From Candidatus Pacebacteria bacterium CG_4_9_14_0_2_um_filter_40_15 (GTDB taxonomy: Bacteria; Patescibacteriota; Microgenomatia; UBA1400; PJMF01): a stretch of DNA of 63,065 bases. Where the stretch lies: assembly GCA_002788675.1 (NCBI GenBank), contig PFRS01000002.1, positions 1-63,065 of the forward strand. Reading direction: 5' to 3'. A program made the position numbers and the translations under genes. Within the stretch, counting starts at the first letter, position 1; each line of letters begins with the position of its first letter. This document shows positions 55,807 to 57,354 of this stretch, one piece after another. The notes below the pieces were generated by a model that saw only the letters and a program-made list of their open reading frames with translations, made no database searches and was not told where the DNA came from.

Positions 55807-57354
55807 TTACTTTGATTTTAGATCGAGTTCTCTTACAATTGTTCCAATAACCTGAGGGCCACCAAAGACCATCCCCGTTATTAATTGAATCAAGTCTGCA
55901 CCTGCATCTAATTTTGATTGTGCAGTTTCCGTGTCAAAAACGCCACCAAGACCAATAATGGTAAACCGATCATAAAAGTGTTCTCTGGTAAGTCTAATTA
56001 ATGCATTTGAGCGAGCAAAAGTAGGTTTGCCACTTAAATTGCCTTTGCGGCTTGCCCAAATTTTTCTTTCAGATGGTGTAACATCAGGATTATTTTTGTC
56101 TTTTGTTAAGTTTCCAAAAATGACACCCTGAACAGCATGTGTGTCCGCCACTGCAAGTAGTTGTAATGTTTCTTTTTTAGATTGATCAATAGGCATTTTT
56201 ATATACAGTGGTCTACTTAGGTGCAGTGCATCAGTGGCTGTGAGCAGTTGTTCAAGTCGTTCTGGTGAAGTAAATGGTTCGCCACCAAAAGTGTTCGGAC
56301 AACTTATGTTAAGTTCATAGTAACTATGATTTACACTAGATTTTTCGAACACAACAAATCCTTTGACAATATCCATAAGTTGCTCCTGAGCTGTGTCAAA
56401 GTGTGTGTTGGTTGAGGCAATGCTAATGCCGACTGGAACGGTAAAAGTAATGCCAGCAAGTTTATTTGCAATTGTTGGTGCGCCCAGTGTTTTGAGACCT
56501 TTATTAACAATTAATGCTTTTGATTCTGGAAGCCTACCTAAACGAGGTTTAGGGTTGCCGGCATAAGGTTGAAAAGTAACTGTTCCAATGGTATGAAAGC
56601 CAAATCCAACTGGGCCCAGAATTTTGGCCATTTCACCGTTATAGTCGAATCCAGCCGCGAGTCCTAGTTTGTTTGGGAAAAGTATGCCATCGCGCACAAT
56701 AGGCGTTGTAGCTGAGTGATACTCAAAGAGTAATTTAGTTTTCCATCTAAGTAGTGCTGAACTTCCCAATAGATTTCCAATTGTTGAAAATGAGTTATGT
56801 ACAATTTCTGGATCGATTAAAAAAAGGATTGGTTTAAGTACATTTGTATACAAAACTGAAACTATTTTATGAGAAATTGTTTTTAAAAGTGTATGTGAGG
56901 AAGTACTTGTTTTAGAAAAGTAGTACCAAGATAGAGCAAACAATGTGGCACTTGTTATCGCAGAAATTAAACAATAGAGACACCAGCCTTTAATGACGAT
57001 TCCCATAAGGAATACTAGGTAAAGTGAGAAAGCTGCACCAAACGTAGTGAGTGTTGTATAGAGTTGCTGGGTTGAGGTAAATGCTCTTAATTTTTTTGGG
57101 AACCATTTTGATGTATCAACTTCTAACACCAATAAACTTCCAAGTATAAAGAGTGTTAGATAGTACATAAAGCCGATAGCAGCCAAAGGAACCGGCCCAA
57201 TGTGAGCATATTTGCTGGTAAGCACTGCTCCACAGTCAAATCCATTACCACATGGTGGTACGATTCCCATTATTTCTTCATAGGTAATAAATGAGGAGTC
57301 AACAATTCCAATAATGGGAAGAATAACATGGAGTAAAAGTAGCACTGTTTTCAT
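55807..57354 (-). CDS. pyrD: fusion of an N-terminal VKOR-family membrane domain to a dihydroorotate dehydrogenase (class-2-like scaffold)
   Basis: VKOR loop Cys pair CGNGFDC and TM CxxC (WCLYC). DHODH motifs GLAAGFDYNGE, IGTVTFQPYAGNPKPR, NKGLKTLG, ELNISCPNT. Confidence 0.8.
   Translation of the reverse strand: MKTVLLLLHVILPIIGIVDSSFITYEEIMGIVPPCGNGFDCGAVLTSKYAHIGPVPLAAIGFMYYLTLFILGSLLVLEVDTSKWFPKKLRAFTSTQQLYTTLTTFGAAFSLYLVFLMGIVIKGWCLYCLISAITSATLFALSWYYFSKTSTSSHTLLKTISHKIVSVLYTNVLKPILFLIDPEIVHNSFSTIGNLLGSSALLRWKTKLLFEYHSATTPIVRDGILFPNKLGLAAGFDYNGEMAKILGPVGFGFHTIGTVTFQPYAGNPKPRLGRLPESKALIVNKGLKTLGAPTIANKLAGITFTVPVGISIASTNTHFDTAQEQLMDIVKGFVVFEKSSVNHSYYELNISCPNTFGGEPFTSPERLEQLLTATDALHLSRPLYIKMPIDQSKKETLQLLAVADTHAVQGVIFGNLTKDKNNPDVTPSERKIWASRKGNLSGKPTFARSNALIRLTREHFYDRFTIIGLGGVFDTETAQSKLDAGADLIQLITGMVFGGPQVIGTIVRELDLKSK

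Follow-up and report, generated by a model that had tools for sequence, protein, structure and literature searches.

A VKOR domain fused to a remodelled dihydroorotate dehydrogenase-like flavoenzyme in Patescibacteria, and its tie to the Dsb system

The window analyzed here is a stretch of 63,065 nucleotides from Candidatus Pacebacteria bacterium CG_4_9_14_0_2_um_filter_40_15 (assembly GCA_002788675.1, contig PFRS01000002.1, positions 1 to 63,065), an ultra-small bacterium from groundwater. At 55807-57354, its minus strand carries a single gene for a VKOR-family membrane domain joined to a flavin mononucleotide (FMN) enzyme with the fold of a class 2, quinone-dependent dihydroorotate dehydrogenase (DHODH). 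A first-pass annotation made from the sequence had proposed that the fusion could tether a DHODH to a bound quinone or couple dihydroorotate oxidation to thiol-disulfide chemistry. Following up on this proposal, we find that the flavoenzyme half belongs to a distinct patescibacterial family, here termed DHODH-L, that is probably not the pyrimidine enzyme and for whose coupling to the Dsb system there is good support. At a probability of roughly 0.5, we favor a quinone-mediated link between the extracytoplasmic oxidation of DsbA and the cytoplasmic FMN enzyme, with the latter most likely serving as an electron sink. The gene comprises the following features.

55807..57354, minus strand: whole gene of the VKOR-DHODH-like fusion, 515 amino acids, stop codon at 55807-55809 (open reading frame list, translation)
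56905..57354, minus strand: VKOR domain, residues 1-150, with four transmembrane (TM) helices and both termini predicted to be cytoplasmic (Pfam, match to PDB entry 4nv6, AlphaFold2 (AF2), lysine plus arginine counts)
57214..57252, minus strand: outward loop with the shuttle cysteine pair C35/C41 and the conserved Ser47 (invariant in family alignments)
56971..56982, minus strand: active-site CxxC (C125-L-Y-C128) at the outer end of TM4, with W124, C125 and C128 invariant
56725..56904, minus strand: five-residue linker, then class-2-type N-terminal helices 155-177, 182-198 and 200-210 (NCBIfam, AF2)
55810..56724, minus strand: FMN-binding TIM barrel of the DHO_dh superfamily, residues 211-515 (Pfam DHO_dh, Foldseek match to 1f76)
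56500..56643, minus strand: remodelled pocket, with Tyr238 for Lys66 and Val283-Asn284-Lys285 for Asn111-Arg112-Met113 of E. coli PyrD (column counts)
56299..56301, minus strand: Cys352, the counterpart of the catalytic Ser175 in E. coli PyrD (alignments)
56107-56109, minus strand: Leu416 for Thr247, belonging to the remodelled-pocket signature
55879-55881, minus strand: Ile492 for Tyr318, belonging to the same signature

The fusion gene and its two domains

The open reading frame is intact, with zero internal stops over 515 residues. Pfam assigned residues 9-143 of the protein to VKOR (E 1.2e-22) and residues 223-511 to DHO_dh (E 8.1e-42), and the translation contains the motifs CGNGFDC (C35, C41), WCLYC (C125, C128), GLAAGFDYNGE, IGTVTFQPYAGNPKPR, NKGLKTLG and NISCPNT. 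An AF2 model of the whole fusion, built on a 61-sequence alignment, reached a pLDDT of 93.7 and a pTM of 0.90, the latter suggesting a fixed arrangement of the two domains within the model. Both PF07884 and PF01180 were present in all top 120 homologues of a database search, 118 of which were full-length fusions with 50-79% identity from several independent sources, the remaining two being short or partial. All five cysteines (C35, C41, C125, C128 and C352) are invariant across the 118 full-length homologues. Taken with the intact frame and the two Pfam domains, these homologues confirm that VKOR and the DHODH fold form one real fusion, and by their sequences both domains are intact and under selection.

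We also considered that an assembly chimera or a frameshift artefact had joined two genes. Both parts exist as separate, overlapping genes in a close relative (locus L100, described below), and contigs of run X15, one of 24 groundwater or aquifer metagenome runs in which the stretch occurs, stop at 56905-56919. The depth of these contigs is 4-6, and we rejected their ends as a sign of a false join, reading them as low-depth fragmentation. In contrast, contigs of runs X16, X17 and X18, which were not flagged as the source, span the junction at 56847-56919 with 0-2 differences, the identical protein was found on 28 contigs, and the fusion recurs in more than 100 independent assemblies. Scanning one genome from each species gave at least 473 relatives, of which we fetched 80; 54 of these were fused. 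Together with the 118 full-length homologues, these data make an artefactual origin vanishingly improbable. No RNA run was among the sequencing runs listed as carrying the stretch. Further records of metagenome-assembled genomes (L078, L079, L081-L083 and others with the prefixes CAZ..., CAY... and JBILGT01) hold a fusion of the type seen in the candidate phyla radiation (CPR) at 40-63% identity. Some of these records are titled 'uncultured Pseudomonadales', 'Gammaproteobacteria' or 'Limisphaerales'; the titles look unreliable, and the five genomes that we checked measure 0.7-1.8 Mb, fitting Patescibacteria.

The N-terminal half carries every VKOR feature that we examined. PF07884 matched over profile positions 3-134 of 134 with 80.9 bits (cut-off 27.5), and the structure of the VKOR-thioredoxin (Trx) protein 4nv6 matched residues 8-138 (E 3e-4). 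The AF2 model contains a four-helix core (helices 2-28, 57-76, 95-121 and 126-149, each with a pLDDT of about 90 or above); the first loop holds an additional short helix. Since loop 77-94 holds four lysines and arginines compared to one in loop 29-56, the positive-inside count predicts that the N-terminus, loop 77-94 and the end of TM4 are cytoplasmic, and that the Cys35/Cys41 loop and the CxxC face outward; this predicted topology is the one known for VKOR. C35, C41, S47, W124, C125 and C128 are invariant in family alignments. The VKOR lacks a fused Trx, and a thioredoxin-fold partner is provided by two membrane-anchored DsbA-like proteins in the genome. The first-pass assignment of a VKOR domain with a loop cysteine pair and a TM CxxC therefore holds, with a complete profile match and a predicted four-helix topology behind it. 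The Synechococcus VKOR-Trx fusion (PDB 4NV2/4NV5/4NV6) shares the four-helix membrane core, loop cysteine pair, conserved serine and TM4 CxxC, and partners of the DsbA/Trx type are present in the source genome as in VKOR-Trx systems. In the Synechococcus protein, a fifth helix and a thioredoxin domain outside the cytoplasm come on top of this core, whereas here the chain is predicted to stay cytoplasmic past TM4 and to continue into an FMN enzyme. The fused partner would thus sit on the electron-acceptor side and not, as in VKOR-Trx, on the donor side.

The C-terminal half scored 143.8 bits with PF01180 (cut-off 27), and its best solved-structure match was E. coli PyrD (PDB 1f76, E 1.4e-39). 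Class 1 DHODH structures matched weakly, with E values of 3e-7 to 9e-4 compared to 1e-39 for class 2. Foldseek likewise returned class 2 DHODHs as its top matches, with a TM-score of 0.87 to 1f76 over 345 columns. The best NCBIfam models were all 'quinone-dependent DHODH' and aligned from about residue 168, thereby including the class-2-type N-terminal helical domain, whose two helices make up the quinone tunnel of class 2 enzymes. The class-2-like scaffold described at first reading is therefore present. Of the tunnel residues, His186 (E. coli His19) does not vary in any of the groups defined below, and Arg102 (E. coli numbering) is invariant in the family. The FMN contacts K386, S441-G442, G470-G471 and G494 (E. 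coli K217, S267-G268, G296-G297 and G320) are invariant, too, as are Asn172, Asn177 and Asn246 in E. coli numbering.

The catalytic residue and the substrate pocket differ from those of E. coli PyrD. NISCPNT aligned on NISSPNT both in the HMMER alignment to 1f76 and in a MAFFT alignment with the annotated K-12 protein, placing Cys352, which is present in 118/118 fusions, at the Ser175 position, just as the first-pass annotation had claimed. Moreover, Lys66 is replaced by Tyr, Asn111-Arg112-Met113 by Val-Asn-Lys, Thr247 by Leu and Tyr318 by Ile, and all of these changes are invariant or nearly so in the family. Lys66, Asn111 and Thr247 are the residues that contact orotate and FMN in class 2 DHODH. 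The motifs first cited as class 2 signatures do occur, but they are altered at these very positions: GLAAGFDYNGE has Tyr for Lys66, and VNKGLK has lost Asn111. The protein missed all curated class 2 cut-offs (TIGR01036 / NF00364x-5x; 263.7 vs 448, 240.8 vs 267 and 192.2 vs 200 bits). It hence combines the class 2 N-terminal two-helix domain with the lack of the Ser base, of Lys66, Asn111 and Thr247, of an equivalog-level score and of a uridine monophosphate pathway context. Nor is it a class 1A or 1B enzyme; the Cys is there, but the sequence type is that of class 2 and the N-terminal helical domain is present. Class 1A PyrDA of L. lactis (PDB 1JUB), which also has a Cys at the catalytic position, is a distant match only (E 6e-4 vs 1e-39 for class 2); it is a soluble protein that lacks the quinone-tunnel domain.

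The DHODH-L family and the pyrimidine pathway

To place the flavoenzyme half among its relatives, we sampled 401 Patescibacteria genomes, obtained matches in 83 and retrieved the DHODH-type genes, which fell into four groups (E. coli numbering).

Group A: 8 fused and 11 unfused genomes, with the same signature as the window protein
Group B: 40 genomes, unfused; Lys66 kept, Val-Tyr/Asn-Tyr at 111-113, Cys175, Leu247, Ile318
Group C: four genes, unfused; canonical pocket (Lys66, Asn111, Thr247, Tyr318) but Cys175
Group D: seven genes, unfused; Ser175 and a largely canonical pocket, with three genes varying at one or two positions

Groups A and B constitute DHODH-L, found in 59 genomes from about 37 GTDB families; the fusion itself occurs in 8 of the 401 genomes, all within group A. 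Positions 66 and 113 hold Tyr and Lys in group A but Lys and Tyr in group B, an exchange suggesting that the two positions act together. In a maximum-likelihood tree, groups C and D formed one clade with the E. coli enzyme (support 100), and group A formed a clade (support 99) nested in group B. Fused and unfused forms interleave within the group A clade, requiring at least four changes. The barrel of the fusion thus belongs to a Patescibacteria-specific paralogue family that is distinct from the pyrimidine-pathway DHODH.

Group C represents this latter enzyme. A gene of this group lies in a prs-pyrE-pyrF-pyrD-pyrC operon (genome G206, locus L030:2645-7593; also L029 and L031), and its product passes the curated cut-offs (381.2 vs 267 and 323.1 vs 200 bits). 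It shares phylum, class 2 fold and Cys base with DHODH-L, but differs in its canonical pocket, its scores, its operon and its place in a clade with E. coli PyrD. As every relative in groups A, B and C has a Cys base, this residue is a trait of the phylum's class-2-like enzymes generally. A Cys base on a class 2 scaffold, emphasized in the first-pass annotation, is thus real but not special to the fusion. Cys-type class II DHODHs have, moreover, been published in anaerobic and facultative fungi (Sch. japonicus, D. bruxellensis, Neocallimastigomycetes), where they oxidize dihydroorotate using non-respiratory acceptors (PMC8520639). The fungal enzymes resemble the fusion in their class II scaffold, their Cys base and in having hosts unable to rely on respiration; in contrast, they serve pyrimidine synthesis, are not fused to VKOR and have no comparable pocket remodelling reported (PMC8520639). 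Their bacterial counterpart is the group C enzyme.

We then surveyed the pyrimidine pathway. The source genome comprises 10 contigs (1.22 Mb) and 100% of marker genes; absences reported here and below rest on profile searches of draft genomes. These searches found no orotidine monophosphate (OMP) decarboxylase (pyrF), aspartate carbamoyltransferase (pyrB) or dihydroorotase (pyrC) in the source genome, and for pyrE only weak phosphoribosyltransferase matches below the cut-off, while the same profiles matched all 14 control genomes. Similarly, tblastn with pyrE and pyrF proteins from Patescibacteria operons found nothing in the source genome. Across the DHODH-L genomes, pyrB scored above its cut-off in 17 of 59, leaving 42 of 59 without it, and 13 of the 17 carried a second DHO_dh gene, usually beside pyrB or an OMP decarboxylase-family gene. 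PF00215 matches were no commoner in DHODH-L genomes than elsewhere, at 39% each (23/59 DHODH-L genomes by hand count and 155/401 overall); hexulose-phosphate synthases also belong to this family. A 903-amino-acid open frame beside pyrB in another genome (G308:C1:696649-700077) has a DHO_dh match of 82.6 bits and may be a multidomain pyr fusion.

Because its otherwise invariant pocket is remodelled, the curated cut-offs are missed and the genome lacks pyrB, pyrC, pyrE and pyrF, the flavoenzyme probably does not serve pyrimidine synthesis, and the first-pass view of the second domain as the organism's DHODH is not upheld. The alternative would be a genuine pyrimidine-pathway class 2 DHODH with a Cys base and a VKOR anchor, passing its electrons to a VKOR-bound quinone or disulfide. 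In its favor, the class 2 fold, FMN site and Asn172/177/246 are retained, the Lys at the Met113 position may stand in for Lys66, and DHODH-L is the sole DHO_dh gene in four genomes with pyrB. Yet Asn111 is Val and Thr247 is Leu in every member, and genomes with pyr operons keep a separate canonical DHODH; in the light of this and of the missing pathway, we regard a pyrimidine role as improbable. In some database records the fusion is annotated as 'dihydroorotate dehydrogenase (quinone)', a label that would wrongly credit these genomes with a step of the pyrimidine pathway.

Association with VKOR, DsbB and DsbA

Among the 401 genomes, 135 carried VKOR and 84 carried DsbB. VKOR was present in 37 of the 59 DHODH-L genomes, and DsbB in 17 of the other 22. 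Either protein was therefore found in 54/59 genomes with DHODH-L, compared to 148/342 without it (146/339 when the unpublished genome G154, included in the background tallies, is left out), and only five of the 199 genomes having neither VKOR nor DsbB encoded DHODH-L. The nominal Fisher p value of this co-occurrence, 7e-13, overstates the association, as related genomes are not independent.

Gene order pointed in the same direction. DHODH-L was fused to VKOR in 61 of 145 fetched loci, and the following arrangements were seen at individual loci, all confirmed by Pfam.

L027: DHODH-L-DsbB-DsbA, in overlapping genes
L055: DsbB overlapping the start of DHODH-L
L073: DHODH-L divergent from DsbA-VKOR
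L120: DsbA-VKOR-DHODH-L
L154: DHODH-L-VKOR, 9 nt apart
L100:2225-4550: methyltransferase, VKOR (158 amino acids) and DHODH-L (360 amino acids) as separate genes with 4-nt overlaps, in a close syntenic relative at 60% identity

The split genes of L100 have one of two origins: a fission or fusion that took place recently, or an assembly frameshift. In the source genome, the fusion is the only VKOR, the two DsbA-like proteins carry N-terminal membrane anchors, and no DsbB was found by profile search. VKOR and DsbB are unrelated in sequence and do the same job, oxidizing DsbA and reducing quinone. An association with both hence points to this shared DsbA-oxidizing job, or to its quinone, as the common denominator. 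Overall, co-occurrence and operons with VKOR, DsbB and DsbA provide good support for a coupling of DHODH-L to the Dsb system, bearing out the suspected link to thiol-disulfide chemistry.

Electron flow through the fusion

The suggestion that the organism may lack a respiratory chain agrees with our searches: no cytochrome bd, heme-copper oxidase or fumarate-reductase flavoprotein was found in the source genome by profile. Patescibacteria as a group are described in published surveys as largely without respiratory chains (PMC5220378). Nor was a quinone prenyltransferase found in the source genome. Its sole UbiA-family gene passes the cut-off for decaprenyl-phosphate phosphoribosyltransferase and sits between GT4 and PMT glycosyltransferases; on both grounds we ruled it out as a quinone prenyltransferase and consider it an envelope enzyme. 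Thus, neither the quinone prenylation step nor any quinol-oxidizing enzyme among those tested was found in this genome.

In the mechanism that we favor, the two halves would exchange electrons through a membrane quinone scavenged by the cell. The VKOR half would re-oxidize the membrane-anchored DsbA-like proteins outside the cell and thereby reduce the quinone, the resulting quinol would be re-oxidized at the tunnel of the DHODH-L half, and FMN, with Cys352 as proton donor, would reduce a small-molecule acceptor in the cytoplasm. The pair would then constitute a minimal electron-disposal chain for disulfide formation in a cell without respiratory enzymes. We prefer this flow from DsbA via VKOR, quinone and FMN to an acceptor because it makes the chain complete in a cell that has no other sink, and because repeated fusion and shared operons are more readily explained by consecutive steps than by competition between two enzymes for the same acceptor. 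A precedent for the reductase half-reaction exists in class 1A DHODH, the same site of which also reduces an enoate, fumarate. In respiring bacteria, the quinones of DsbB and VKOR are re-oxidized by terminal oxidases or anaerobic reductases, as in the E. coli route from DsbB via menaquinone to fumarate or nitrate reductase. The proposed logic, disulfide electrons to quinone to terminal reductase, would be the same here, with two differences: a DHODH-derived flavoprotein, either fused to the quinone reducer or sharing an operon with it, would take the terminal position, and there is no respiratory chain. More tentatively, DHODH-L could then be a quinol-oxidizing reductase derived from class 2 DHODH, that is, a new kind of terminal enzyme, forming a self-contained, non-energy-conserving chain with VKOR or DsbB.

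Fumarate, suggested as an acceptor by the class 1A analogy, was rejected, as PurB, a Lyase_1 member, class I fumarase and fumarate-reductase flavoprotein are all missing from the source genome, which thus differs from class 1A settings in having no fumarate source. Neighbor clustering found no operon partner common to most DHODH-L loci. Minority neighbors across the 145 loci include a Crp-like regulator (14), L-lactate dehydrogenase (LDH; 8) and flavodoxin (3), which suggest a redox-balance context. At L104:548-4209 (Patescibacteria group bacterium BroJett032, BOKX01000001.1), for instance, VKOR, LDH, flavodoxin and an unfused group A gene form an operon with 4-11 nt overlaps, divergent from a Crp-like regulator; the same genes occur in other orders at L105, L107 and L117. 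The source genome has an L-LDH, and tblastn found no flavodoxin or Crp-like homologue in it. This L-LDH homologue (G000:C8:307877-308785) lies about 2.5 kb from a DsbA-like gene (C8:311355-311795). Elsewhere, a gene for tRNA-dihydrouridine synthase (Dus), likewise an enzyme with FMN and Cys, adjoins the DHODH-like gene (L055:1946-2902, L017, L045 and L107). Unfused group A genes of family f14 (L011, L014, L021 and L009) are near SufB-/SufC-like and ArsR-like sequences, as judged by eye; being confined to one GTDB family, these suf-like neighbors probably reflect lineage synteny.

Several observations weigh against an electron-sink role. Transfer from quinol to FMN runs opposite to the known direction of class 2 DHODHs and, given DHODH flavin potentials, would need a retuned flavin. 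No acceptor emerged, the obvious candidate, fumarate, being without an endogenous source in the source genome. Ninety-eight VKOR-bearing genomes have no DHODH-L, so that it is no universal sink, and the co-occurrence may only mirror a shared need for scavenged quinone among related genomes that are not independent samples. Finally, DHODH-L is the only DHO_dh gene of the pyrB-positive genomes G350, G270, G152 and G088, in which a DHODH role is conceivable.

Of the other directions of flow, the one that fares best has two quinone reducers sharing scarce quinone: DHODH-L would oxidize a cytoplasmic substrate, the fusion would merely anchor the flavoenzyme close to quinone, and quinol would be re-oxidized elsewhere, by O2 non-enzymatically, by the host or by an unrecognized enzyme. 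This direction is that of all characterized class 2 DHODHs, His19 and Arg102 of the tunnel are still in place, DHODH-L and VKOR/DsbB each occur without the other in some genomes, and the fungal Cys-type class II enzymes oxidize dihydroorotate with non-respiratory acceptors (PMC8520639). However, as no quinol-oxidizing enzyme was found in the source genome, two reducers would stall, and we see no pathway that would supply a substrate. The tight operons and the recurrent fusion or fission, with VKOR and also with the non-homologous DsbB, fit consecutive steps better. We therefore consider two parallel reducers rather unlikely.

Less likely still is a reverse flow, in which DHODH-L would oxidize a cytoplasmic donor and the VKOR half would use the quinol to reduce or isomerize disulfides outside, in a DsbD/CcdA-like manner. 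The dehydrogenase direction is native to DHODHs, and at L074 a VKOR-Trx gene adjoins a multi-pass membrane protein of no assigned family. The operon partners, in contrast, are DsbA-type oxidases and DsbB, which to our knowledge acts only as an oxidant. Quinol-to-disulfide transfer is, moreover, thermodynamically poor for DsbA-type partners. We accordingly see only a slim chance for this direction.

Two features lie immediately upstream of the fusion gene.

57361..57388, minus strand: promoter-like TTGAAA-16-TAGAAT (10/12), ending 7 nt before the ATG; a weak candidate, the regional count being that expected from shuffled sequence
57397..58227, minus strand: class I S-adenosylmethionine methyltransferase (Pfam), 42 nt upstream of the fusion start

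No Shine-Dalgarno sequence is visible in the 42-nt gap before the ATG (57354-57396), and the transcript may be leaderless or nearly so. The methyltransferase is syntenic in 20 related loci (within L078-L100). As a UbiG/UbiE-type quinone methylase it was rejected: its best curated match, UbiG, scored 28.8 bits against a cut-off of 103, a generic similarity only.

Both domain families, and the Cys base in class II DHODHs, were already known; literature searches found no paper on the fusion, on the remodelled DHODH paralogue family or on its tie to Dsb. The DHODH-L family would represent a core metabolic enzyme recruited to a new job, recognizable by a residue signature comprising the Lys/Tyr swap, Asn to Val and Thr to Leu. 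Patescibacteria carry disulfide-bond systems, and the source genome encodes pili that would need them. With VKOR joined to a cytoplasmic flavoenzyme, one clonable gene makes the fate of the electrons from DsbA oxidation directly testable. If the favored electron flow is correct, respiration-less, quinone-scavenging CPR bacteria would make extracytoplasmic disulfides by dumping the electrons on a cytoplasmic metabolite.

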